From an uncultured virus (IMG/VR IMGVR_UViG_3300044451_000218) (Duplodnaviria; Heunggongvirae; Uroviricota; Caudoviricetes), in IMG/VR virus record IMGVR_UViG_3300044451_000218: a stretch of DNA of 20,000 bases; one strand, 5' to 3'. The translations under genes were made by a program, and so were the position numbers. The notes below the pieces were generated by a model. It searched no databases. It was not told the origin of the DNA and was given only the letters and a program-made list of their open reading frames with translations. Of this stretch, positions 2,999-18,069 are shown one piece after another. Positions within the stretch are counted from its first letter, which is position 1; each line of letters starts with the position of its first letter.

Positions 2999-4114
2999 AT
3001 GAACATCCTCCGCAAACTCGTACTACGCATTCACGAAACTCCGACCCGTGCCGTCCTCGCCATCACCGGGGGCGGCACGGAAGCAATCGGGGAGCTTCTG
3101 CGTTATGGACAAGGCTCCAGCACCATTCTGGAAGCCGTCGTCCCATACGACCAACAAGCGTTCCGCGACTTCGTCAAAGGCACGCCCGACAAGTATTGCT
3201 CGTCGGAAGCCGCCAACGATCTCGCGGCATCGGCTTATCTTCGCGCCCGCCAATTAACGAGCGAAGGGCCGGTCGTCGGCGTGGGCGTCACCTGTTCGCT
3301 CACGAAGGACGGAGAGCGAGCGGGCCGCAAGCACAACGCATACATCGCCGTACAGGGTGACGACTCGACATACGAGTGCGAGGTTCTGCTGAAAGATGCC
3401 GTTCGCACCCGCGCCGAACAAGAGGCTCGTGTGGCCGAGGCCATCATCGGCTGTCTGGCGATGATGTGCGGAATCCCGGCGTCCGAAAATTGCATGTCAC
3501 ACAACCTCATCTGCAACGGCACCCACTACGGCGTCGGGCAAGAACTGATGGATGTGTGCAGGGGGCAACTGGACGTTACGCCGCAGTGCAGCCGCGAAAA
3601 TCGCGTCATCTTCTCCGGGGCGTTCAATCCGCTCCACGCGCAACACGAAAAGATCGCGGCGAAGGTGGCCGAACTCACCGGGCAACGTGTCGATCTGGAA
3701 GTCTGCATCAAGAACGTGGACAAGCCCGCGCTCAGTCACGCGGTCATTCATCAACGGCGTGACCATTTGAGTGTGGCTATGTACCAGAAGGATTGGGCCG
3801 GTTCACTGTTCTGGACCAGCACACCCACCTTCAAGCAGAAGGCTCTGGCCTTCCCGAAGTCCACCTTCGTCATCGGGTGGGACACCTTCACGCGGCTCAA
3901 CGATCCCAAGTACGGCGATCTTGACGAAGCCGTGGCCGTGTTCAGGAAGATGGGTACAAAATTCCTTGTCTTCCATCGTATCATCAACGGCGTATCCAGT
4001 GCGGACGCCCCGGCGACCGAATGGCGAATGGCCGAGTTCGCCAAGATCATCTCGGCCGAGGAACTTCCTCCGGTCGATATTTCCAGCACTCAGATCCGTA
4101 ACGCGGGAACCTGA
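2999..4114 (+). CDS. CinA/PncC-like domain fused to a NadD/NMNAT-type nucleotidyltransferase
   Basis: N-terminal ITGGG...GSSTILEAVVPY CinA-like region; FSGAFNPLHAQH (HxGH-like), IGWDTFTRL and C-terminal ISSTQIR motifs. Confidence 0.8.
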   Translation: MNILRKLVLRIHETPTRAVLAITGGGTEAIGELLRYGQGSSTILEAVVPYDQQAFRDFVKGTPDKYCSSEAANDLAASAYLRARQLTSEGPVVGVGVTCSLTKDGERAGRKHNAYIAVQGDDSTYECEVLLKDAVRTRAEQEARVAEAIIGCLAMMCGIPASENCMSHNLICNGTHYGVGQELMDVCRGQLDVTPQCSRENRVIFSGAFNPLHAQHEKIAAKVAELTGQRVDLEVCIKNVDKPALSHAVIHQRRDHLSVAMYQKDWAGSLFWTSTPTFKQKALAFPKSTFVIGWDTFTRLNDPKYGDLDEAVAVFRKMGTKFLVFHRIINGVSSADAPATEWRMAEFAKIISAEELPPVDISSTQIRNAGT

Positions 4115-4116
4115 AC

Positions 4117-4494
4117 ATGGAACTCAAGGCGCTATACACCGAAGGCAACAAGCCCGAAAGCGTCGATAAGGCCGAGGAAACAAGAAAAGTCTTCCTCGAC
4201 GCCATGAAGACTTTTCTGGCGATGCCGACCAATCCGGTTCTTAGCGCCGAGCAGAAGAAGAAGATCACGGACAAGGTCGAGTGGCTGCTGGCGAACGAGT
4301 TCCGGCCGACGTTCTGGCGAAATCTGGACTGCCAACTGAACCTCCGGGTCATCGAAGGCGTCGTTCAGATGACGCCGAAGCTGCTCGTGTGGGCAGAATA
4401 CCGGAAACAGTCCGTTCCGAAGGTGAAGGAAGGCCAGACCATCCCTCACGCCAAGAACGGGAAAATCATCAGAAGCGCAAAGGGACTGTCATGA
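4117..4494 (+). CDS. hypothetical protein
   Basis: 125-aa ORF in the operon, ATGA overlap with the next gene. Confidence 0.7.
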   Translation: MELKALYTEGNKPESVDKAEETRKVFLDAMKTFLAMPTNPVLSAEQKKKITDKVEWLLANEFRPTFWRNLDCQLNLRVIEGVVQMTPKLLVWAEYRKQSVPKVKEGQTIPHAKNGKIIRSAKGLS

Positions 4495-5096
4495 AGAACG
4501 TCTACAAGGTCAACGGGCTTCCGTTCTGGAACGCCAACGAGATTGCCGAACGCGAACACCTCGTTCGCGTTTTCCCTCTTTACCTAGAAGAGTTTTTGCG
4601 AACCGAGAACGCCGCGTGGCACTCGCACCGCATCGAAGCTCCCGTCCTGACGCCGCACGACCACATCAACCCCAACTACACTGATCAGGACGTGTGCAAA
4701 GTGTACGACCGCCACATCGAGAACGGCGAGCCGCACAAAGCCTACTTCGAGTGGGCGGTTCGCGGCTGGCTCTCCGACGAAGCACACCGCTACCCGATGG
4801 GGAAAGGCGCTAAACCCGAATACTCCTACTGGGACGGCCAGAAACTCAGCTACGTCGAAGCCCGCAAGAAGATCTACGCCCCGCTGTACGCCGGCGCGGT
4901 CGAACACACCGACGCCTTCAAACGCCTCAAAGAGATCTACGAGGCCGAGAAAGAGATCTGGCTCTGGGACTTCGACGCCTACGACCACCACAAGCTCGGC
5001 ATGACCTACGAGCAGGTGATCAATTCGGAAACAAGAAAGATGGGCCACTGCTTCGTCCTCGGCATGCTACTCGAAAACCAACGGGTGTGGGAATGA
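4491..5096 (+). CDS. hypothetical protein, possibly chimeric (C-terminus DUF6939-like)
   Basis: ATG at 4491 overlaps the previous stop; RYPMGKGAKP...LSYVEARKKIYAPLY motif. Confidence 0.65.
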   Translation: MKNVYKVNGLPFWNANEIAEREHLVRVFPLYLEEFLRTENAAWHSHRIEAPVLTPHDHINPNYTDQDVCKVYDRHIENGEPHKAYFEWAVRGWLSDEAHRYPMGKGAKPEYSYWDGQKLSYVEARKKIYAPLYAGAVEHTDAFKRLKEIYEAEKEIWLWDFDAYDHHKLGMTYEQVINSETRKMGHCFVLGMLLENQRVWE

Positions 5097-6813: not shown

Positions 6814-7329
6814 CTACCGTGGCGGCGGGGCCGGCATCGGGTAAGGTACGGCTGGTGGCGGAATCATCACGTCGTCGCATTGGCACTTCTTCTTGCGGTG
6901 GACGCAACCCACACACAGAACCACCGCCAGCAGCAGAATCACATTCTTCATGACGAACTCCTTTAGTTGGGCCGGATCAGTCTACACCGCCACAACCAGT
7001 ACCGGAGGCCGAACAATGAATCAAGACCAACAACCGCCAGCTACAGACCCGCACGCCCCGAAACACCTGAAACCGCTCCGCATCTTACGCAGAACCCCGA
7101 ACAGATCACCGAGGAACTCAAAGCGAGAGCCTCGAAGGTCAAGAAGAAGATCGCACGACTCGAAAAGCTGAAACGGGTCAGCCACGAAGTCATGCGGATG
7201 CGGTGTTGCGCGGCTCCCTAGTTAAGAACAAACTAGCAGAGCGTCATGCCAAAAAAGTGATTTCCCCAATGGGAGATGCCATTTTGGTCTATACTGACAT
7301 CCTCGTGATTAAGGGCGAGGGCGACAGCA

Positions 7330-8805
7330 GTGAAGAACTTCAACGTGGCAACAGATTCCTTGTTCTTTGTCGCCGAGGGCGATCAAGAAAAGCTCGTTTC
7401 TGCTCTCGACATCGAGAAGAACGGCAAGAAGTATTCACAGTTTCTTGGCTCGCCAATGCAACAGGCGACCTACATGAACGCCATCGTCGCCATCCTCAGC
7501 GATTTGAAGGCCAATGGGAACACGTCCCAATACGACATGTCCACCTTCATGCAGCAGCCCGACTTGTCAACCAAGTACAACATCTACTTCCCGTGGAAAA
7601 CGCTCGCGAAAAACGATGTGCATCGCGAGATCGGCTATTGCAGTTCACGGATTCCTGTAGGCCAAAACGAAGCGTATCGTTTTAACCCGCACCCACAAGC
7701 TTTTGAGTACGAGCTTTGCCAACGATGCTGCGCATATGGTTTTTTGGAAAACATCCTGTTTGCCCGTAGTGGTGGGCAAGGATGGAGTCCTGCTTTGGCC
7801 GGTGAAAACCCCCTGTATGTCTGGAAGACCGGGGAGAACCTCGCCGACTTCATTCAACTGAACAGCGGCCAGCCTGAAAAGGCCGGGTGGGACGTTCTGA
7901 AAACCCTCGGTACTCCAGAATCTCCCAACTTGCTAACGCGCAATCAAACATACACATACAACCCAAGACTGATGGAATGTGTGTGGAAGGCACCGCTACA
8001 ACCTTGCTTTTTGTGCGGCGACTGTGAAATGCCTCATGGCAGTGAAATGTATTCTCGTGGGATCAATACGAAGTTTACCAAAGAGTCACTTTTGAAAGGC
8101 TTTCAGAAGAAATGGCACGGGTTCAAACCGACCGAGAAGGAACATTTCTTAATTGTCCCGTGCGAAGATGATAGGAAACTTGTGCGTAAAGACGGCAAAC
8201 GCATGATCGCTACGGCAGACAACAAAACTATTGCCGAAGCCGCCTACGCTCAATTTGGTGACAAATGGATCGCAATCGGAATGATGGTTGAAAGTGTTAA
8301 GAAGTCCTCGATTTTCGAGCAGTATCTCGTGACCCCTGACACTTGCCCGCAGCGAAGGAAACAGCCCCCGCACAAAAACTTCAAGAAGAGGCTTGACGGC
8401 TCAAGGCCCAAAGTCGTTGTTCCAAAACCGATCATCTCTACAGCGGAGGTAAGCCGCGAGATGATCGCAAAGGCCGTCGCATGCCTGAGCGAGATCCCCC
8501 AAGAAAAGCTCGCAATGTTACGCAACGCCTGTTACGGCGCGAGGCATGAAAGCGATGCCGAGGTGTTGGATTTTCTGGACGGTCTTTGGCGGAAGGTTTA
8601 CCAGAAGACCCGACTGACTTTCAAGAGGGTCTTTTTTCAACTGGTTCTCGCCTACGCCTGCAACCCGCGCAGTCGCAAGAGCGGTTACCTTGCTAAACAT
8701 TTGGCTCGCAACGTTCAGCTATTGGCACAATCGCCCTGTTCTGCCGTTGTGTTCGGCGAAGTCGATTGGTACTGTGTTTTCTCAACCATGTGTGGAGTGA
8801 AGTAA
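7330..8805 (+). CDS. cas8e: Cas8e (Cse1/CasA)-like large subunit with a C-terminal Cas11 (Cse2)-like region
   Basis: N-terminal FNV.....F.V...VS..D, LCQRCCA....FARSGGQG....GENL..FIQLN and CFLCG motifs as in Cse1; first gene of the cas operon. Confidence 0.8.
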   Translation: MKNFNVATDSLFFVAEGDQEKLVSALDIEKNGKKYSQFLGSPMQQATYMNAIVAILSDLKANGNTSQYDMSTFMQQPDLSTKYNIYFPWKTLAKNDVHREIGYCSSRIPVGQNEAYRFNPHPQAFEYELCQRCCAYGFLENILFARSGGQGWSPALAGENPLYVWKTGENLADFIQLNSGQPEKAGWDVLKTLGTPESPNLLTRNQTYTYNPRLMECVWKAPLQPCFLCGDCEMPHGSEMYSRGINTKFTKESLLKGFQKKWHGFKPTEKEHFLIVPCEDDRKLVRKDGKRMIATADNKTIAEAAYAQFGDKWIAIGMMVESVKKSSIFEQYLVTPDTCPQRRKQPPHKNFKKRLDGSRPKVVVPKPIISTAEVSREMIAKAVACLSEIPQEKLAMLRNACYGARHESDAEVLDFLDGLWRKVYQKTRLTFKRVFFQLVLAYACNPRSRKSGYLAKHLARNVQLLAQSPCSAVVFGEVDWYCVFSTMCGVK

Positions 8806-8806
8806 A

Positions 8807-10318
8807 ATGGCTACGCTCAGAAATGTGTTCCTCGGCATGTCGCAAATTACGCACTACGGTGCGGGACTTCCGAATCGCGACAAGAGCGGTGTGTACAAAC
8901 ATATCCCCGTGGGCAACGTGGATCGCGGGATGGTGTCGCCACAGTGCCGCCGTCAGCACGTTCGTGAAGAGATCGTCAAGCGTATGCCGCACCTCGAACT
9001 TTCCGACCAGACGCGGCACTACCCAGACATCCTCATCCCGATGTTGACAGACACGTCCGATAAATTCGGCGGCGTCGCGTTGACCGAATCGGAAGCAAAT
9101 GTGGTCATGCAGTATTTCCGCACCCTGCTACAGAAGAAGACCCGCGAAACGAAAAACGGTCGTTCAAACGCCACCTACAAACATTGGCCGGACTCCATGC
9201 GACTGGTGGCTGCGGCATGTCGAAAAATCAAAGAGAATGGCGGGCAACAATGGTCCGACATTTCCACCCCGTCATCCACCATCGTCATCGAGAACATTCT
9301 CGCCGATCTGGGGCTTGAGAAACAGGACAAAAACGATGACGATGATGATGACAAGAAAGATCCCGAACTGGAAGCCACTCGCAACCGAATCCTCAAAGAA
9401 CTCCCCGGCCGCATGGAGGCCGCGAAGATCGGTTACGATCAAGGTAACGAATTGAAGGCACTCGTTATCGCCATCCGCGATAACGTGCCGCAAGAGCAGC
9501 CGGAACAAGCGGAGAAAATCGAGAAGCCCAACCAGAAGCCTCAAGCCGGTGGCAAGAGGGGTGCCAAGAAGACCGTCGAAACCAGCGGACTGGATGAAAT
9601 TCGCGATAATTTCAAGAAAGCCTTGCTCGCAGAGACGAGCAAAATCAAGGGCAAGAAAATGCTTCGGCTTTCTGACTGGTGTGTGCCGCCATTCGACGTA
9701 GCCCTGTTCGGCAACATGCCCAACGAGAACCTCCACCGGCAGGTTACGCCCGCCATGAACAACACGGCGGCTATCTCAGTCAACCCGTTGGCCCCGGTCA
9801 CCGTTTTCAATACCATCGTTGATACCAAACGGCCGGAATCGAACATGGTGCCGGATCAGAGCTACATGTACGACGCCGTTATGTACTCGTTCGACATGCT
9901 TGACTCCAACCAGTTGTTCCAGAACATGGAGCGAGAGGCCACGGTCGCAGAAGTCGAAGCACTGATCGCGTCGTTCATCGAGTCACTGCCCGGTGCCAAA
10001 CGCGGCACCTCGGCGATCAATTCGCCGCCGATTCTCGTATCAATCGTGCTGTCGGAGTACAACCAACTGTGTTGCGAACGCGCCTTCGTAGAGGCAATCA
10101 ATACGCAAACGGATGATGTTTCACGCATCGCCACCGAACGGCTGTACGGTTTCATGCAGAAGAACCAAGAACAGTGGGAACCTCTCGATACGTTCGTCTA
10201 CTCGGTCGATCCCGTACCAGAGAAACTCAAAGCCCGAACCTACCGCAACACGCGGAAGTTCGCGCGAGCCGTCGCCGAACGCTACGTTGAACTGCGTTGT
10301 AGCGTGACCAAGAAGTAA
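8807..10318 (+). CDS. cas7: Cas7e (Cse4/CasC) backbone subunit, enlarged
   Basis: PNRDKSG..K....G...R..VSPQC.R, DVALFGNM, AISVN, SLPGAK motifs matching Cse4. Confidence 0.88.
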   Translation: MATLRNVFLGMSQITHYGAGLPNRDKSGVYKHIPVGNVDRGMVSPQCRRQHVREEIVKRMPHLELSDQTRHYPDILIPMLTDTSDKFGGVALTESEANVVMQYFRTLLQKKTRETKNGRSNATYKHWPDSMRLVAAACRKIKENGGQQWSDISTPSSTIVIENILADLGLEKQDKNDDDDDDKKDPELEATRNRILKELPGRMEAAKIGYDQGNELKALVIAIRDNVPQEQPEQAEKIEKPNQKPQAGGKRGAKKTVETSGLDEIRDNFKKALLAETSKIKGKKMLRLSDWCVPPFDVALFGNMPNENLHRQVTPAMNNTAAISVNPLAPVTVFNTIVDTKRPESNMVPDQSYMYDAVMYSFDMLDSNQLFQNMEREATVAEVEALIASFIESLPGAKRGTSAINSPPILVSIVLSEYNQLCCERAFVEAINTQTDDVSRIATERLYGFMQKNQEQWEPLDTFVYSVDPVPEKLKARTYRNTRKFARAVAERYVELRCSVTKK

Positions 10319-10371
10319 AACGAAGACCACATTTCCCGATTTATCGGGAGTCACCAATAAAGGTCCAAGAC

Positions 10372-11430
10372 ATGAGCGTCATCAAACTGTTTTTGGCCGG
10401 CTCACGACAGTGTTACGGACTCGAAAATATCGGCCAAACCAAGCCGTGGCCGACCAAAAGCGCCGTCGCTGGCATCGTGGCAAATGCGCTCGGCCTCGAC
10501 TACAAAGACACGACCGAATTCCTCAAAGATTTCAATAAGACCAAAGTACACGTTCGCGTGGACTCTCCCGGTTCTATCTGCGAAGACTTCCAAGTCGCCA
10601 CCGGGTTTGGTGATGCAAACGGCCGCGCCCGCACAATGAAGGAAAAGGTTGCTTACGTCGATAACGGGGTCGTTAAAGAATATAACGCCCCGAAAAAAAC
10701 CATGTTTACACCCACATACCTCTGCGATGCGAGGTTCATGGTTTTTATCGAAGGCCGACGCGAGGTTCTCGAAACTTGGGTCGCCGATCTCGAACGGCCC
10801 AAACGTCCCCTTTATCTCGGACGGTCGTCATGCCTCCCAAGTGAAAACATCTTCGTGTCCCACGAGGACCGAGACATTCAGGAACTGATCGAGAACAGTG
10901 TACTCGAACTACTGCCGGGAACCAAATACGAGGGTCAAAAAACACTCAATACGATCATGGAAGTCCAGAGTGGCGGGTACTTCATCCGAGATGTCGTTCT
11001 TACGTTCAAACCGAGCCACACACACGGTTCACGAATGGTTGTTCAAAAGCCAGTGGTCGTGAAAAATGTTGTCCCGTGGCTGCAAGGCGTGGGCCTTTCC
11101 GGGCGAAGAAATCGTCCGAGTAAAAAGGCACGCGATGAACGCCTTTCATATGACAACAATCGTTGCGTCGAGTGCGGGGCAGTCAAGGACGTGCAATATC
11201 ACCACGTCACATACGAGAACTATGGGTGTGAAAAGCTCGAAGACGCCCGAACCCTCTGCGTCATTTGTCACCGCGCCTGCACGCTTCTCAACAGTCAATT
11301 CGGTCACTTTGATCCGAGGGAACTGCCAGAAGAAGATTACGAGGTCTACCGGAACGTGCGTGACCAGATCGCGGTAGAACATATGAGGATTTTGGAATCA
11401 AGAAAGCAACTGCCGAAGTTGCCCTACTGA
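10372..11430 (+). CDS. cas5: Cas5e fused to a C-terminal HNH nuclease
   Basis: PTKSAVAGIVANALG, YLCDARF, LYLGRSSCLPS (Cas5e); C-terminal CVECG...YHHVTY...TLCVICH (HNH). Confidence 0.92.
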   Translation: MSVIKLFLAGSRQCYGLENIGQTKPWPTKSAVAGIVANALGLDYKDTTEFLKDFNKTKVHVRVDSPGSICEDFQVATGFGDANGRARTMKEKVAYVDNGVVKEYNAPKKTMFTPTYLCDARFMVFIEGRREVLETWVADLERPKRPLYLGRSSCLPSENIFVSHEDRDIQELIENSVLELLPGTKYEGQKTLNTIMEVQSGGYFIRDVVLTFKPSHTHGSRMVVQKPVVVKNVVPWLQGVGLSGRRNRPSKKARDERLSYDNNRCVECGAVKDVQYHHVTYENYGCEKLEDARTLCVICHRACTLLNSQFGHFDPRELPEEDYEVYRNVRDQIAVEHMRILESRKQLPKLPY

Positions 11431-11471
11431 TTCAGCCCATTCCACTATGTCCCATTTTTTGGGAGACTCTT

Positions 11472-12086
11472 ATGTATCGATGCTTCCTGAAGGTCAAACC
11501 CAGTGCCATGATGTCCAGACTGTACGACTGGCACGGGTGGTATGGAATCATTCTCAACGGGTGGCAAGACACTAGGTTTCATCAACAGCCTCGGTCAGAA
11601 AATCGATCCATCCTGTACCGGGTCGAGAACGAACAGATTGTCGTTCAAAGTACAGAACGGCCAGATCAGCCAATCCGCGCACCAGAGATCGCCAGTTGTG
11701 TGATCGAGGAGTATAACCCGAAACCATTCGGGAAGACCAACATCGAAGTGGTCATGGCCGTTTACACGCGGGGCAAGCGGACCAAAGGCGTTGCGCCGCC
11801 CGGAGTCAGAAAGAACCCCACTGCCGGACTATACCTGCCACTCGAAAAGCGACAGTTCTTCCTCCGCAAAATGCAAGACAACGGGTTCGTCGGCGACATC
11901 ATTTCGCTATCGGTCGGCCAGACGTTTTCGTTCTCTTCACCTCACGGTCAAAGTAGAATTGAACTGCCGGTGGCAAACTTCAAAGCCACAGTGGACATCA
12001 AGGACACTAACGCCTTCCTCGACATGATGAAACGAGGCGTCAGCCGCAACAAAGATTCTGGCTGTGGACTTATCGTTCTGCGATAA
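11472..12086 (+). CDS. cas6: Cas6e crRNA-processing endoribonuclease
   Basis: ILYRVE...IVVQS..RP and C-terminal Gly-rich loop GVSRNKDSGCGL; directly upstream of the array. Confidence 0.85.
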   Translation: MYRCFLKVKPSAMMSRLYDWHGWYGIILNGWQDTRFHQQPRSENRSILYRVENEQIVVQSTERPDQPIRAPEIASCVIEEYNPKPFGKTNIEVVMAVYTRGKRTKGVAPPGVRKNPTAGLYLPLEKRQFFLRKMQDNGFVGDIISLSVGQTFSFSSPHGQSRIELPVANFKATVDIKDTNAFLDMMKRGVSRNKDSGCGLIVLR

Positions 12087-12230
12087 TACGCGAGAGCAGA
12101 GGTGTTGAACACTTCCTCTGAATTCGATCTTTGAAAACTTAGACAATTACGCCACGCGAGCTACGCACAAGGCAACCCCTCGCGTGGCGTAATTGTAGTA
12201 CCGATAATAGTTCGATTTGTGGCCATGAGC
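12087..12230 (+). promoter_or_regulatory. CRISPR leader with an 18-bp perfect inverted repeat (12143-12196)
   Basis: Non-coding stretch between cas6 and the conserved end of the array; ACAATTACGCCACGCGAG / CTCGCGTGGCGTAATTGT. Confidence 0.65.
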
Positions 12231-13125
12231 CTCAAACCCTCAATCCCATTCATTGGGAGTTGTCATCTTACCAAGCTCGATGTTCAAGTGACGCCCGCAG
12301 ACCTCAAACCCTCAATCCCATTCATTGGGAGTTGTCATAATTGCTCTTTGAGACGCAGCAACTTCGAGACTTCCGACTCAAACCCTCAATCCCATTCATT
12401 GGGAGTTGTCATGGCGAGCGGCTGCTTCGGGTGATCCAGAAGAAAGAACTCAAACCCTCAATCCCATTCATTGGGAGTTGTCATCCGATCTTCATGGGCA
12501 ACCTTCAGGAAGGCACAACCCCGCCTCAAACCCTCAATCCCATTCATTGGGAGTTGTCATCGCTCGGTGCTGGTCTGCGAGTCGGACGGTGAATGCTCAA
12601 ACCCTCAATCCCATTCATTGGGAGTTGTCATACGAAGGACGGCAAAGGGAAACTTGGCATGGTCCGGCTCAAACCCTCAATCCCATTCATTGGGAGTTGT
12701 CATCTCTGGGTTCTGGTCCGGCGGCAGCAGCTTCTTCATCAAACCCTCAATCCCATTCATTGGGAGTTGTCATCCGTACCCGACCGCTTTGGAAACAAGA
12801 ATGCCCGCCTTAATCCCTCAATCCCATTCATTGGGAGTCGTCATAGCAGCTCAGTGTCGATGGTCGCGAGTTGCGAGTCCGCTCAAGTCCCAATCCCATC
12901 TTTTGGGAGTTGTCATCTGGGAGCCGCAAGCCGATGGGTAGAAGACCAGCAATTTTTGTAACTAATCCCATTTCGTTCGGAGTCGTCATAAGACCGACAG
13001 ATGGGCAGCATGACTGGCTGCAAATTCAATCCCATTTTTTTGTTGGGAGTTGTCATGACGGGTTCGATGGCCTGGATTGCGCTGATGGCACACTTCTCAA
13101 ACTCGTCCCATTCATTGGGAGCTAC
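12231..13125 (+). CRISPR. CRISPR array 1: 13 repeats CTCAAACCCTCAATCCCATTCATTGGGAGTTGTCAT (36 nt), 12 spacers
   Basis: Identical repeats at 12231, 12303, 12377, 12449, 12525, 12596, 12668; progressively degenerate at 12738, 12809, 12882, ~12954, ~13018, 13096; first nine spacers 34-40 nt; TCCCA/TGGGA stem followed by exactly 8 nt. Confidence 0.97.
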
Positions 13126-13754
13126 CTGACTAACTCAATCACCTTCGGCGGCACCTTTTCCGAAACGTAATAGGACGGCCACCTGCTGTCCTCCGAACCA
13201 CGCCCGTCATTCTGCAACTTGTCTTCCAACACCGACCGCTTCACCTTCAACACCACCACCGGCGACGGCCGATCCGAATTGTGTTCCTCATGTTCCTCCA
13301 CCCTCTGCTTCCAGAACTTCACCCCGCCCTTCTCGGCAAAAAACACCTTGCCCGAACTGTAGTCCGAGTAGTTCGTAAACTGCTTGACTGCCGTAGGAGA
13401 CAACCCGTTCTTGCGAATCAGCGGCAACCGCGATTTCGTCGTAACGTGGTAAAGGTAATCGTCCTTACCTTCCTTCTGAATGGCCTCGCGGTCCAACCTA
13501 GCGGCCAATTTCTCGTGATCGACGTTCCTGTAACGCTTCGCCAGTTCGCGGTAAACGAACGCGGCGTAACCCTCGGACACGCCGAGCTTTTTGCCAATCT
13601 CCGCAATCGACAAACGACCCGTCGCAGCCAGTTGCTGCATCGCCCACGGCTTGATGGAAGGCTCAATCGAGGTGTACCACGCTTCCCACGCCTCCCACGG
13701 GTCGCCGGCAGAAGGCGGAACACTCATTTCTAGCCACAGTTTGAAAGTCGTCAT
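13122..13754 (-). CDS. HTH plus ADP-ribosyltransferase-fold (KptA/Tpt1-like) protein
   Basis: Start MTTFKLWLE; LSIAEIGKKLGVS HTH; LYHVT....L..I...GL.P, VFFA, VVLKV, VPPKVI ART-like motifs. Confidence 0.65.
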   Translation of the reverse strand: MTTFKLWLEMSVPPSAGDPWEAWEAWYTSIEPSIKPWAMQQLAATGRLSIAEIGKKLGVSEGYAAFVYRELAKRYRNVDHEKLAARLDREAIQKEGKDDYLYHVTTKSRLPLIRKNGLSPTAVKQFTNYSDYSSGKVFFAEKGGVKFWKQRVEEHEEHNSDRPSPVVVLKVKRSVLEDKLQNDGRGSEDSRWPSYYVSEKVPPKVIELVR

Positions 13755-13759
13755 GACCC

Positions 13760-13766
13760 TATTTAG
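13760..13766 (-). promoter_or_regulatory. T4-like late-promoter motif (TAAATA)
   Basis: Minus strand reads CCCTAAATAGGGTC-ATG immediately before the 13754 start. Confidence 0.4.
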
Positions 13767-13769
13767 GGC

Positions 13770-13798
13770 TTGACGCACATCAACAAAAAGCCTAATCT
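13770..13798 (+). promoter_or_regulatory. sigma70-like promoter
   Basis: TTGACG-17 nt-TAATCT upstream of the RBS and ATG at 13833. Confidence 0.5.
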
Positions 13799-13832
13799 GA
13801 CTTCCACACAGAACAACAAAAGGAATTCCGAC

Positions 13833-14385
13833 ATGAGCCGCTCCGTCATCTGCCGCTGCCGCCACGAAGACTGCGGGCAAGACACCTTCGTCGCACACAT
13901 TGACGACAACCGCCTGCTGCCCCGAATGCGGACGGCAACAGTCACCCGACGTACTCGGCGTCCCCAACGGCCTGTACAAGCACTACAAGGGCAACACCTA
14001 CCGCGTCACCGGCTACGGTCTGCTCACCGACCCCGAAACGCGAGTGGTTTACTACCACAACATCGAGACGCCCGACCAACTGATGGCCCGGCCGACTACA
14101 ATGTTCATCGAGAACGTCAACGGTCAGCCCCGGTTCCAATACATCGGCGGCGAAAGCCCCAACACGTTCCCCGCCCTCGTGAAAGCCGAACTGGAACGCG
14201 CCCGCAGACTGCATCCGGGCAACCAACGCTGCCTGCACGAAGCATACGGCGTTCTTCAGGAAGAAGTTGACGAGTTCTGGGATCTCGTCAAATTCAAGAA
14301 ACCCGACCCCAAGAAGGTACTGGAAGAACTGGTTCAGGTCGCTGCTATGGCACAGAGAAGTGCCGAAGATCTGGAACTCACATGA
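13833..14385 (+). CDS. zinc ribbon + DUF1653 + MazG-like fusion, with an apparent frameshift near 13900
   Basis: GLYKHYKGNTY...ARP..MF...PRF (DUF1653); HEAYGVLQEEVDEFW...EELVQVAAMA (MazG-like); the RBS-supported ATG at 13833 is out of frame with 13900-14385. Confidence 0.7.
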
Positions 14386-14549
14386 GACGACACAACACGT
14401 TGCCCGACGATGAATTCGACTACTACCCGGAAGAGAAGCCCCCGCCGAGACAACCACAGTGGCTCGGCATCGTCGCCCTCGTCGCCCTGCTCGTGATCCT
14501 TGTGTTCGTCTTACACGATTCGGCCGTCAAACTCGGACTCGTCAAATGA
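14382..14549 (+). CDS. small single-pass membrane protein (55 aa, not in ORF track)
   Basis: ATGA-coupled start; WLGIVALVALLVILVFVL hydrophobic helix. Confidence 0.65.
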   Translation: MRRHNTLPDDEFDYYPEEKPPPRQPQWLGIVALVALLVILVFVLHDSAVKLGLVK

Positions 14550-14850
14550 AAAAGGCATTCAACGTGTTCGCCCAGTTGTTCCTCGCCACAAAACACCACA
14601 CGGCAGCTACATGCCAGACTTTGAGTATCCTGATCGTTTTGTGGAGGTGAAAAGCCCGTGGACACTTGCAATTTGCAAAGGCGAGAAACCAAGTAAAAAC
14701 AACTTGTGTAGTGATGTGCAATGGCGTAAGATCCAGTACGTTAACGACCACTTCAAAACGGTTGAAGTGGTCGTACTATCCAAAGCGGAAGCCGCAAAGC
14801 TTTTCGCCAAAGCTCAAACGGGAGTCCTCCAATTCGCTACGCCAGCATAG
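14500..14850 (+). CDS. PD-(D/E)XK nuclease domain, probably N-terminally truncated
   Basis: TPHGSYMPDFEYPDRFVEVKS motif; no convincing start or RBS. Confidence 0.55.
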   Translation: MCSSYTIRPSNSDSSNEKGIQRVRPVVPRHKTPHGSYMPDFEYPDRFVEVKSPWTLAICKGEKPSKNNLCSDVQWRKIQYVNDHFKTVEVVVLSKAEAAKLFAKAQTGVLQFATPA

Positions 14851-14937
14851 TACCTCCCCGACCTCAAAACCTGCCTGCAACGCGCCGGGATCACCGAAAC
14901 CAACGTCAAACTGAAGGGTTTCCATGAAGACGGCAGC

Positions 14938-15921
14938 AGACCAATGGCTTAGGCAGGTGCAGGCAAGGTTGTATGCGATTCGCTTACGGTCTGCAAGCTA
15001 TCGGTCAAGACCAATGGCTTAGGCAGCAGTCAGCCTTGAGGACTACGAAAGAACGCATGTCTGCAAGCTATCGGTCAAGACCAATGGCTTAGGCAGATTC
15101 CGCTCATCTGGTTCCACTTGGGGTATATCGAATCTGCGAGCTATCGGTTACGACCGATAGCTCAGGCAGGAGGGTTGGCGACGGCAGGCATCGGCGCTCT
15201 GCGTGCTATTGGTTACGACCAATCGCTCAGGCAGCCGTCCGTGTCTGGGATTGCGACGACGTGCAGCATCTGCGAGCTATTGCTTACGACCAATGGCTCA
15301 GGCAGTAGCTGATGCCGAGTTCATCGGCAACCTGCGAGTTATCGGCTAAGGCCAATGACTCAGGCAGGACGACTACCTCGATCTGACGCCACTTCTGCGA
15401 GTTATCGGCTAAGGCCAATCGCTCAGGCAGAACCGCTGCCTCGTGTTGCCAATGATGACCGCGACCCTGCGTGCTATTGGTTACGACCAATCGCTCAGGC
15501 AGCCCCAGTCGAACAGGACGTTGGCGACGGCGTTCATCTGCGTGCTATTGGTTACGACCAATGGTTCAAGCAGATTCGGCAGCATTACGGATCTTTTCGA
15601 TGAACCTGCGAGCTATCGGTCAAGACCAATGGCTCAGGCAGAACTATAAGCCCGTGTCGCCTGTCTGCGAACCATCTGCCACGGCTCATGGTTCAAGCAG
15701 GTTCAAGCAGGACATCCTGCTGTTCGACTCTCTGACCGCAAACGACTGCGAGCTATCGGCTAAGGCCAATCGCTCAGGCAGTGTTGGATGTATGCGAAGT
15801 CGCCGTTGCTCGCCTGCGGGCCATCGGTTGCGACCAATGGCTCAAGCAGATCTTGAAGTTCGCGTCATTGCATTTGTTCTGATACCTGCGAGCCATCGGT
15901 TACGGCCAATGGCTCAAGCAG
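14938..15921. CRISPR. orphan CRISPR-like array 2: 14 full plus 1 partial 36-nt hairpin repeats (consensus CTGCGAGCTATCGGTTACGACCAATGGCTCAGGCAG), 14 unique spacers
   Basis: Full repeats at 14991, 15061, 15134, 15199, 15270, 15332, 15395, 15467, 15538, 15606, 15665, 15746, 15814, 15886; 3' half-repeat at 14938-14956; spacers 23-37 nt. Confidence 0.85.
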
Positions 15922-16188
15922 AAGCACTACGTCGCACTCGCCACAGGCTCGCAACCTAAACACCCCGAACACCCGTAAAACGACAACGGCCAACCCGTCA
16001 CCAGATCGTCACCACGACGCTCAAAAACCAACCCGGCATCTTCAACAGCTACCAAGAGGCCATCACAACACTCGCGCAATACGCACAACACGCTCCCCGA
16101 TTCAAACTCGGCGACCAAACCGACTACGAACTCCACCTCAAAACGTTCACCGATAACTACAACTACGACAACTGAAAGGCACACAACC

Positions 16189-16620
16189 ATGAACCGCCGC
16201 GAACTCCTCTCCCTCCCACTGCTCGCCCTCACACCCCCACAAAACCCCCTCCAAGTCCAAATGATCAACTACCAGGGACCGGGAAGACCCAACGATGTCG
16301 ATCCCAAATGGGCAGAAAGGCTCCTAGAAGGCTCTACAATCGATCTTCCGAACACGCAAACCCGCTACCTACACCAACGAAAACAAAACGTGAGCATCCA
16401 AGCCACTAACTTCCTACACGCCAACGTCTTCAACCACGTTGACGAGGTCAAAAAGAAAGCCGCCAAAGCCTTCCCACACTCCTACAAAGGCTTCTGGCAA
16501 GATCACACACACATTCACCTCCAACTGGACCAAATTGTTCACTCCATCCCGCAACCCGCCCCTACCCCGTGGAACGACGAACAGTCGGTCCACAGGGGCA
16601 ATGATGGGCAAGGCTATTAA
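16189..16620 (+). CDS. hypothetical protein with a twin-arginine-like N-terminus
   Basis: MNRRELLSLPLLAL start; GAAAGG RBS. Confidence 0.6.
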   Translation: MNRRELLSLPLLALTPPQNPLQVQMINYQGPGRPNDVDPKWAERLLEGSTIDLPNTQTRYLHQRKQNVSIQATNFLHANVFNHVDEVKKKAAKAFPHSYKGFWQDHTHIHLQLDQIVHSIPQPAPTPWNDEQSVHRGNDGQGY

Positions 16621-16638
16621 CAACTGGGGTCCGAAACC

Positions 16639-16875
16639 ATGAGTGACTTCATCTGCATCCACTGCCGCAAAGAGAAAGCCAAACCACTCACGGAAGAGGA
16701 ACGGCCGTACTTCTGTACCAAGACCTGCGCCACCAAATACGCACTCAACATCGCCAACAAACTCGCCGACTGCCCCAACTGCAAATCTACCCTCACACAC
16801 AGACGGGGTGGAGGGTACTACTACGACAATGATCGCAGGTGCGGGGAGTGCGGACACACATGGGAGCCGAAATGA
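16639..16875 (+). CDS. Cys-rich zinc-finger protein
   Basis: CIHC, CTKTC, CPNC, CGEC motifs. Confidence 0.7.
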   Translation: MSDFICIHCRKEKAKPLTEEERPYFCTKTCATKYALNIANKLADCPNCKSTLTHRRGGGYYYDNDRRCGECGHTWEPK

Positions 16876-17093
16876 ATAAGGAAGACAAACGCCGACTCCG
16901 AAACCTCAAGAAGAACATCAAGAAGCTCGGTCACCAGAAACAACGACACAAAACCAAACAACTCCTCAACCAAGACCCGACCAACGAGGAGCTACAACAG
17001 GACAATACCGACTACGGCAAACTTGCCTCCGATACCCTCAACGGACTCGACAAGGATAAGACACGGAAGACCGAGTGGCACCAGAATACATAA
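16872..17093 (+). CDS. small basic hypothetical protein
   Basis: ATGA-coupled start, GGGAG RBS, Lys/Arg-rich. Confidence 0.6.
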   Translation: MNKEDKRRLRNLKKNIKKLGHQKQRHKTKQLLNQDPTNEELQQDNTDYGKLASDTLNGLDKDKTRKTEWHQNT

Positions 17094-17097
17094 CGAC

Positions 17098-18069
17098 ATG
17101 GAAATCTACCAAGACATCGTCGTCAAGGGGAACCTAGTCAAAAAAGGAATTCGCCCCTGCGAGGAACGCTACCAAGCCGTCAGAAACGTCTGCCGACTCT
17201 TCCAAAGACCTATCACCGTACTCGACATCGGCGCGAACCTCGGCTACTTCTCCTTCAAACTCGCACAAGAGTTCAAAGGCACCTTCGTCATGATCGAAGG
17301 CGGCAAAGAAGAACAAAATTACCTCCTCACCCTCTGCAAACTCAACGACAACAACCAAGTCGTTCTACTCAACAAACACATCACCCTACAAGACCTCAAC
17401 GAACTCGCAAACACCGAACACTTCGACATCACTCTCGCACTCAGCGTCATACACTACTTCAACGAACCACTCGACCAAGTCTTCAAAGCCATGACCAGAC
17501 TCGGCAACTACCTCGTCATCGAAATGCCACACCCACAAGAACACGCCCACAACCAACACCGCGTACAACAAGAACCACTCCCCCTACACGAATACCACAC
17601 CGAAATCCTCACCCAAACACCCACACACACCGCGCCCGGACTCAACAGGGACACAATACTCGTTCACTGCCCACAGAAGACACTCGACAAACCGTACTGG
17701 GACTGGCTCCCACACAACAGCTTCTACCAGAAACCCGAAATCGTCTCCACACACGAACTCAAATACATCCAGTTCCAACGCAAACCCGACTCCCGACACT
17801 GGATCGATGGCATCAACTTCTCCACCTTCATCGCACTCAAAGGCAACTTCCCCACCAAACACAAACTCGTTCAGCAACTCAAGAAAATCGATACCTCAAA
17901 CTCCACCGACACCCGACAGTGGAACATGATCCTCTCCAGAGACACAATCACACCCATCGACCACAAAGACCCACAAGCACCACACACCAACCCACAACAC
18001 GAAAGAAATTGCCTCGACACCATCATCCAACGCTTCCAGAACGACCAACTCGCACCCAACGCCCTCTAA
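17098..18069 (+). CDS. class I SAM-dependent methyltransferase with a kinase-like C-terminus (WbdD-like)
   Basis: VLDIGANLGYFS motif I, FDITLALSVIHYF; C-terminal DTRQWNMIL...PID resembling a kinase catalytic loop. Confidence 0.78.
   Translation: MEIYQDIVVKGNLVKKGIRPCEERYQAVRNVCRLFQRPITVLDIGANLGYFSFKLAQEFKGTFVMIEGGKEEQNYLLTLCKLNDNNQVVLLNKHITLQDLNELANTEHFDITLALSVIHYFNEPLDQVFKAMTRLGNYLVIEMPHPQEHAHNQHRVQQEPLPLHEYHTEILTQTPTHTAPGLNRDTILVHCPQKTLDKPYWDWLPHNSFYQKPEIVSTHELKYIQFQRKPDSRHWIDGINFSTFIALKGNFPTKHKLVQQLKKIDTSNSTDTRQWNMILSRDTITPIDHKDPQAPHTNPQHERNCLDTIIQRFQNDQLAPNAL

Follow-up and report, generated by a model that had tools for sequence, protein, structure and literature searches.

We describe a type I-E-derived CRISPR–Cas locus in which Cas5 carries an HNH nuclease domain at its C-terminus and which has no cas3 gene beside it. 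The locus lies in a stretch of 20,000 nt from the uncultured virus record IMGVR_UViG_3300044451_000218 (hereafter the window), a 20-kb part of a ~476-kb contig; all statements on the absence of cas genes refer to the window. Type I-E systems with such a Cas5-HNH protein are named variant I-E2 in passages of PMC12669027. It is quite likely that the locus is a divergent member of I-E2, i.e. an RNA-guided DNA nuclease complex that has no need for Cas3.

Gene content of the locus

Between positions 7330 and 13130 on the + strand the genes cas8e, cas7e, cas5e-HNH and cas6e are followed by a CRISPR array of 13 repeats (Table 1). The four open reading frames (ORFs) are closely spaced and all are intact. 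This order of genes and array, with no cas3, cas1 or cas2 in the window, had been read from the letters alone in the original prediction; it was confirmed by hidden Markov models (HMMs) and by a PADLOC scan of the ORFs. HMM and structure searches recovered all four Cas families, and with the low identities observed they bear out the description of a four-gene, highly divergent Cascade derived from type I-E. The word 'compact', used in the same prediction for the putative nuclease, was an overstatement, the four proteins having a combined size of 1550 aa.

PADLOC was run on 121 of the 122 ORFs of at least 60 aa, the remaining one being a nested shorter start. Among these it detected no cas1, cas2, cas3 or separate cas11, and no further Cas or defence proteins beyond the four. 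Cas7e was identified by Pfam Cas_CT1975 (6e-30) and PADLOC Cas7e (8e-33), and Cas6e by Pfam CRISPR_assoc (2e-12), its C-terminal glycine-rich loop being alignable to E. coli CasE.

Table 1. Features of the Cas5-HNH locus (positions in the window)
Feature	Position	Strand	Remarks
cas8e	7330..8805	+	491 aa, GTG start; Cse1-type N-domain (residues 1-340), basic linker, Cas11-like C-terminal domain
Candidate internal start in cas8e	8445..8463	+	GGAGG 8445-8449, ATG 8461 (Met378), spacing 11 nt; sequence signal, putative function
Cas11-like (mini-Cse2) domain of Cas8, residues 376-491	8455..8802	+	
cas7e	8807..10318	+	503 aa; Pfam Cas_CT1975, PADLOC Cas7e
cas5e-HNH	10372..11430	+	352 aa; Cas5 domain ~1-215, linker, HNH ~255-320
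HNH core C265-H300	11164..11271	+	two CxxC pairs; H278, D291, H300
cas6e	11472..12086	+	204 aa; Pfam CRISPR_assoc, PADLOC Cas6 and Cas6e
Leader	12087..12230	+	perfect inverted repeat, 18-bp stem 12143-12160 / 12179-12196, 18-nt loop
Array 1	12231..13130	+	36-nt repeat CTCAAACCCTCAATCCCATTCATTGGGAGTTGTCAT; 13 repeats, 12 spacers of 34-40 nt

The Cas5-HNH nuclease

The reference I-E2 system is that of Candidatus Cloacimonetes bacterium ADurb.Bin088 (PMC10910872, PMC11794572, PMC12669027; structures 8YB6, 8YHA, 8ZLU and 9JXS). Residues 20-311 of the Cas5 protein align to PDB chain 8yb6_A, the Cas5-HNH subunit of the solved complex, with an E-value of 5e-21, and the alignment extends from the Cas5 domain across the linker into the HNH domain. 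The Cas5 part alone matches the Cas5e family TIGR01868 (7e-24 on residues 6-176, exceeding the family cut-off), while HNH endonucleases of PHROG match residues 244-332. H278, D291 and H300 align with H310, D324 and H333 of 8YB6, named as the key HNH residues in passages of PMC11794572; together with C265, C268, C296 and C299 they are invariant in all three homologues (3/3). We place the locus in I-E2 because its Cas5-HNH protein matches 8YB6 over both domains and keeps the active-site residues and both CxxC pairs. The intact-looking HNH domain claimed earlier for the C-terminus of Cas5 is thus real, at the coordinates given for it (core 11164-11271), and so is the proposed kinship with described systems in which Cas5-HNH replaces Cas3.

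In the Cas5-HNH family the cutting of double-stranded DNA depends on a protospacer-adjacent motif (PAM), is lost on mutation of the HNH domain and does not need Cas3, according to passages of PMC10910872; the only member for which this cleavage is known is the Cloacimonetes system. A rival explanation for the window is that a Cas3 encoded elsewhere in the genome is still required and the HNH domain is an accessory. The search for cas3 and cas1-cas2 spans only 20 kb of ~476 kb, which counts against our reading and leaves room for such a gene, and rare loci with cas3 remnants nearby are mentioned in passages of Altae-Tran 2023 (PMC10910872). Against the requirement for Cas3 stand the statements, in passages of PMC10910872 and PMC12669027, that I-E2 loci are typically without cas3 and that the HNH of the Cas5-HNH Cascade alone cleaves both strands; in passages on the solved complex (PMC11794572) the HNH domain sits where a Cas11 would otherwise be, and Cas3 is not needed. 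We regard a distant Cas3 as very unlikely to be needed.

Relatives of the locus proteins are scarce, amounting to 2-3 protein clusters. Full-length relatives of Cas5-HNH among ~5.8 billion clusters were P0005 (44% identity) and P0006 (35%) only. Queries with Cas5-HNH and Cas8 found no relatives in metagenome contigs; the 13 loci matched in genome contigs encode an ordinary Cas5e (220-248 aa) that lacks the HNH motif. A tblastn search of phages with Cas5 returned a single 20.7-kb record, matching the Cas5 part only.

Five kb upstream of the cas operon, at 1471-2253, there is also a free-standing HNH protein of 260 aa (Pfam HNH 4e-4; a weak match to the IscB HNH region, 1.8e-5; PHROG HNH endonucleases).

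A short Cas11-like domain at the end of Cas8

The 491-aa Cas8 ORF gives only faint direct matches to Cas8e (PADLOC E 0.0046). An exhaustive HMMER search yielded 24 proteins at E<=1e-3, the query included; 16 of these were taken into the alignment and eight shorter ones were left out. Pfam Cse1 matches 14 of the 16 aligned proteins, and the two full-length relatives, P0015 and P0016, exceed its cut-off. In the predicted model a Cse1-type N-domain (1-340) is followed by a basic disordered linker (320-371) and then by a domain of seven helices (376-487).

The model was aligned to 48,161 representative PDB chains with no prefilter, and for residues 376-491 the top five places went to Cse2/CasB/Cas11 proteins: 8yb6_K, Cas11 of the Cas5-HNH Cascade (score 8.6; 112 residues aligned, root-mean-square deviation 3.4), 2zca_A, Cse2 of Thermus thermophilus (6.8), 5h9e_B, Cse2 of E. 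coli (6.6), 4h79_A, CasB of Thermobifida fusca (6.3), and 3wa8_B, CasB of M. ruber (5.6). The next-ranked row was an unrelated protein (5.3). Cse1 and Cas11 of the Cloacimonetes I-E2 system were the top structural matches of the two Cas8 domains.

A chain of sequence similarity leads to the same family. A Cse2 profile made from three Pfam-verified Cse1-Cse2 fusions finds P0021 (1e-14), P0026 (1e-11) and then P0022 and P0017; extended by these four proteins, the profile finds residues 389-452 of the window Cas8 (P0002) with E 5.7e-4 (36 proteins), and among 243 window ORFs the window Cas8 is its top match (E 0.0039). A profile of the canonical Cse1 C-domain recovers that domain in the true fusion P0020 (360-474, 2e-16) but has no match in P0002 or its close relatives P0014, P0015 and P0016. 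A Pfam scan of the four Cas8 C-domains gave nothing and a first hhalign comparison was weak.

These results bear on an alternative in which the C-terminal domain is a diverged Cas8e helical bundle and Cas11 has truly been lost, with the enlarged Cas7 or nothing filling the belly of the complex. The lead of five Cse2 representatives, I-E2 Cas11 first, in an unbiased structure search argues against it, as do the failure of the Cse1 C-domain HMM on P0002 and its three relatives and the similarity chain that runs from verified Cse2 through P0021/P0026 and P0022/P0017 to P0002. We find this alternative improbable and read the domain as a shortened Cas11. The earlier claim that there is no separate cas11 holds for the gene, none being present between the end of cas8 (8805) and the start of cas7 (8807); the protein is not absent, being fused in shortened form to the C-terminus of Cas8. 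The fusion per se is not new, because passages of Altae-Tran 2023 (PMC10910872) note that some Cas5-HNH loci have cas8 fused to cas11. What may be new is that Cas8 has apparently lost its helical bundle and that Cas11 has become shorter.

Cas11 might also be made on its own. Met378, the candidate internal start (Table 1), is in frame and two residues inside the Cas11-like domain, and a start there would yield a protein of 114 aa. GGAGG occurs nine times in all on the + strand of the window, and the cas7 start is preceded by GGAG at the same spacing. In types I-B, I-C and I-D Cas11 is produced by internal translation of the large-subunit gene, as stated in the part of McBride et al. (bioRxiv 10.1101/2020.04.18.045682) that we cite. 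Judged from the sequence signal, internal translation of a free 114-aa Cas11 from Met378 is quite conceivable, though we would not expect it.

An enlarged Cas7

Residues 22-56 and 294-434 of Cas7 align to residues 18-52 and 156-301 of E. coli CasC. Because of this split alignment we place the ~130 extra residues in the finger region, between the N-terminal motif and the palm. The extra region is retained in the sole relative, P0013 (488 aa, 43% identity), together with motifs that are conserved and a charged stretch of low complexity. A structural Atlas search with residues 60-290 returned Cas7e fragments only, with template modelling (TM) scores <0.4; the match to 8yb6_D (E 0.16) falls short of significance, and tblastn of Cas7 against phages gave no match.

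The CRISPR array and its leader

Of the repeats of array 1, seven are exact copies, another two deviate at 1-3 positions and the four at the distal end are degenerate. In the folded repeat a core hairpin of 5 bp leaves exactly 8 nt on its 3′ side. In type I-E, Cas6e cuts at the base of the stem and leaves an 8-nt 5′ handle, and the anatomy of the repeat fits this rule. Guides of 34-40 nt, versus 32 in the model system, suggest a longer backbone of the complex. The exact repeat was absent from viral contigs and from metagenome contigs. Spacers 5 (12561-12595) and 7 (12704-12737) are similar in their first 15 nt, as seen via repeat family D3, which reaches into both; their shared start could come from two acquisitions from related targets.

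The inverted repeat of the leader (12143-12196) has no T-run after it and could terminate the operon, serve as a site of processing or bind a regulator. Against Rfam it gave a chance hairpin match only, and Rfam over the whole window gave no CRISPR repeat family and chance matches only. A tRNA scan of the window found none, and promoter and terminator scans of it were at chance level.

Proposed mechanism and activity

Array 1 would be transcribed rightwards from the leader 3′ of cas6, and Cas6e would cleave within each repeat, at the foot of the small hairpin on its 3′ side. The resulting CRISPR RNA (crRNA) is predicted to have an 8-nt 5′ handle (GUUGUCAU), a guide of 34-40 nt and a 28-nt 3′ handle with the hairpin; it would be held by Cas5 at the 5′ handle, by six or seven copies of Cas7, by Cas6 at the hairpin and by Cas8. 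The N-domain of Cas8 would read the PAM and open the DNA, and the HNH domain, on a linker of ~45 residues from Cas5, would cut the target close to its PAM-distal end, as the solved Cloacimonetes complex does. The role of the small subunit would be taken by the shortened Cas11 domain, which would replace the C-terminal helical bundle of Cas8 on a flexible basic linker and might be produced as the free 114-aa protein as well. The system has no adaptation genes in its vicinity and would act against rival elements or host genes, a role also put forward in the original prediction, which further supposed that adaptation machinery may be borrowed from elsewhere.

The system is probably active. Several observations speak against this picture. 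In blastn searches of 12200-16000 against GenBank phages and PLSDB plasmids no spacer was matched; no spacer matched the window itself; and spacers 1 and 2, searched with every sixth base free, were absent from IMG/VR. Neither a protospacer nor a PAM emerged from these searches. The spacers of 34-40 nt and the four decayed distal repeats may mean that the array is old and static. The predicted structure of Cas7, made from a 2-sequence alignment, has a predicted local distance difference test (pLDDT) score of only 38.6, and Met378 is not Met in the three Cas8 relatives.

The spacer content was compared among metagenomes as well. Thirteen runs were listed, all labelled lake-water metagenome and none of them an RNA run, and contigs of four were examined. 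The locus (7000-16200) was present at >=99% identity in contigs of all four runs, which carry the years 2018 and 2025. Eight substitutions, each G>T or C>A, were the sole differences, and they were confined to low-depth contigs from a single run. The contig pieces of the four runs that cover the arrays contain no alternative spacers, but such contigs are interrupted within the arrays and would not reveal rare variants.

It could be argued that the nuclease is inactive or the locus decaying, so that the complex merely binds DNA (silencing) or does nothing. The spacers without targets in the searches above, the four degenerate repeats, the lack of adaptation genes in the window and the unchanged spacers of the four runs, within the limits of such contigs, would fit such a locus. 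They are opposed by the integrity of all four ORFs, by the conservation of active-site residues and zinc ligands across homologues 35-45% identical and by the identity of seven repeats of array 1. We consider an inactive locus highly improbable and retain the reading of a working nuclease complex.

The carrier

The carrier is fairly probably a huge phage of ~476 kb from lake water. The proteins of the window are recorded on a contig of 475,914 bp, and the ORFs are densely packed and mostly small, lie on one strand and for the most part defy annotation; PHROG matches exist for 5 of the 24 main ORFs. The NadD-like nucleotidyltransferase encoded at 2999-4114 (N-terminal half unknown) has two matches, both to uncultured phages (485 and 595 kb), and none to plasmids. 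The C-terminal domain of ORF 4281-5096 occurs in 74 phage records; uncultured phages of 462-735 kb are among these and reach 47% identity. For carriage by a large phage, as put forward in the original prediction, the evidence is indirect: the size of the contig and the two proteins matched best, or solely, by huge phages count for it, and the occurrence of the second domain on megaplasmids counts against it.

The same domain is found on six conjugative megaplasmids of 356-599 kb with 46-50% identity, no capsid, terminase, tail or other virion or packaging genes are present in the window, and Cas5-HNH and Cas8 have no relatives among the viral contigs of IMG/VR; these three points tell against a phage. 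They favour a megaplasmid or another large extrachromosomal or chromosomal element, on which the Cascade would serve ordinary defence or competition between plasmids, and large plasmid-like sequences were noted beside huge phages in passages of Al-Shayeb 2020 (PMC7162821). The balance of records for the domain (74 phage versus seven plasmid records in all), the NadD-like protein with its matches to two huge phages and no plasmid, and the dense, one-stranded, mostly unannotatable genes with PHROG matches point the other way. A non-phage carrier is possible but unlikely, and the huge phage remains our preferred reading. With the whole window as query, megablast found nothing among GenBank phages, and a 21-kb neighbourhood compared in huge phage LR745208 has only the NadD-like gene in common with the window.

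A very strong compositional skew was observed on the + strand at 16001-18000 (GC skew −0.31 to −0.42, AT skew +0.41 to +0.43). This stretch holds small ORFs and the methyltransferase gene 17023-18069 (PHROG methyltransferase and glycosyltransferase matches).

A second, orphan array

Array 2 (14941-15921) has 14 repeats of 36 nt and a half repeat, 12 of them distinct in sequence, with 14 spacers of 23-45 nt. Each repeat forms one full-length hairpin, in which a closing stem of 4 bp (CUGC/GCAG) is separated from an inner stem of 11 bp by a bulge of 2 nt on the 3′ side. Compensatory changes are seen at five pairs, a number reached in 1 of 500 shuffles. This shape resembles the crRNA scaffold of Cas-lambda2, for which passages of PMC12141684 give 36 nt, a stem and a stem-loop with a 2-nt junction, and a guide whose length is fixed by a ruler-type cut within the spacer. 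No ORF of Cas12 size is present in the window, and the repeat pattern is absent from viral contigs and genome contigs.

Significance and comparison with known systems

Cas5-HNH Cascades are of interest as precise Cas3-free type I genome editors. The locus opens no new class of system, and what the branch shows is how much remodelling of the scaffold is tolerated while the nuclease is kept: a fused short Cas11, a dropped Cas8 bundle, a larger Cas7 and longer guides. It is in effect a natural experiment on the belly contacts that the HNH domain needs. If the carrier is a phage, I-E2 joins the CRISPR types used by huge phages.

A more far-reaching reading, which we offer as speculative and doubtful, is that in a lineage of huge phages the inner side of a Cas3-free HNH Cascade was remodelled: the Cas8 bundle would have been lost, a tethered mini-Cas11 would be made free as well via an internal start (the first in type I-E), Cas7 would have gained a conserved module of ~130 residues, and the complex would be lengthened for guides of ~36 nt. 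The adaptation-free nuclease and the neighbouring Cas-lambda-style array would then form a two-system arsenal against rival elements.

In canonical type I-E systems of the E. coli kind, cas3 and cas1-cas2 are adjacent, repeats are ~29 nt and spacers ~32 nt. The present locus differs in having no cas1, cas2 or cas3 in the window, repeats of 36 nt and spacers of 34-40 nt. With the Cloacimonetes I-E2 system it shares the HNH domain on the C-terminus of Cas5e via a long linker, the same catalytic triad and zinc ligands, Cas8, Cas7 and Cas6 of type I-E and a locus without cas3. Sequence identity to that system is low and the carrier here is probably a phage. There are four genes here, unlike the five, with a separate cas11, of Cloacimonetes; Cas11 is a domain of 116 aa fused in place of the Cas8 helical bundle versus a protein of 174 aa, and Cas7 has 503 aa versus 378. 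The Cloacimonetes crRNA of 61 nt with a 32-nt spacer, as given in passages on that system, compares with repeats of 36 nt and spacers of 34-40 nt.

The Cse1-Cse2 fusions P0018, P0020 and P0036 (633-662 aa) likewise have the small subunit on the C-terminus of the large one. Fusions of the P0020 type keep a full Cse1, with its C-domain at 360-474 and a full Cse2 after it, whereas the window Cas8 has a mini-Cas11 and no detectable Cse1 C-domain. As with the internal Cas11 of types I-B, I-C and I-D, the small-subunit domain is encoded towards the 3′ end of the gene for the large subunit, with GGAGG-ATG at the domain boundary; unlike in those types, there is here only a sequence signal, and the Met is not conserved in relatives. 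An internally translated Cas11 in type I-E was not reported in the passages and abstracts covered.

The type I variants of huge phages described in passages of Al-Shayeb 2020 (PMC7162821) are similar in that a large phage-like genome bears an effector lacking Cas1, Cas2 and Cas3, together with compact arrays and, in the neighbourhood, another array of a different kind. The system described there belongs to a variant of type I-C in which a helicase substitutes for Cas3, and neither Cas5-HNH nor the term HNH occurs in that paper. As for carriage of Cas5-HNH by phages, the word 'phage' is absent from PMC11794572 and passages of PMC10910872 and PMC12669027 make no mention of it; the Al-Shayeb 2022 survey and Data S2 of Altae-Tran 2023 may already list the lineage. 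The Cas5-HNH kind of system has been known since 2023, has structures and since 2025 a place in the classification, and the locus is a rare, remodelled branch of it.

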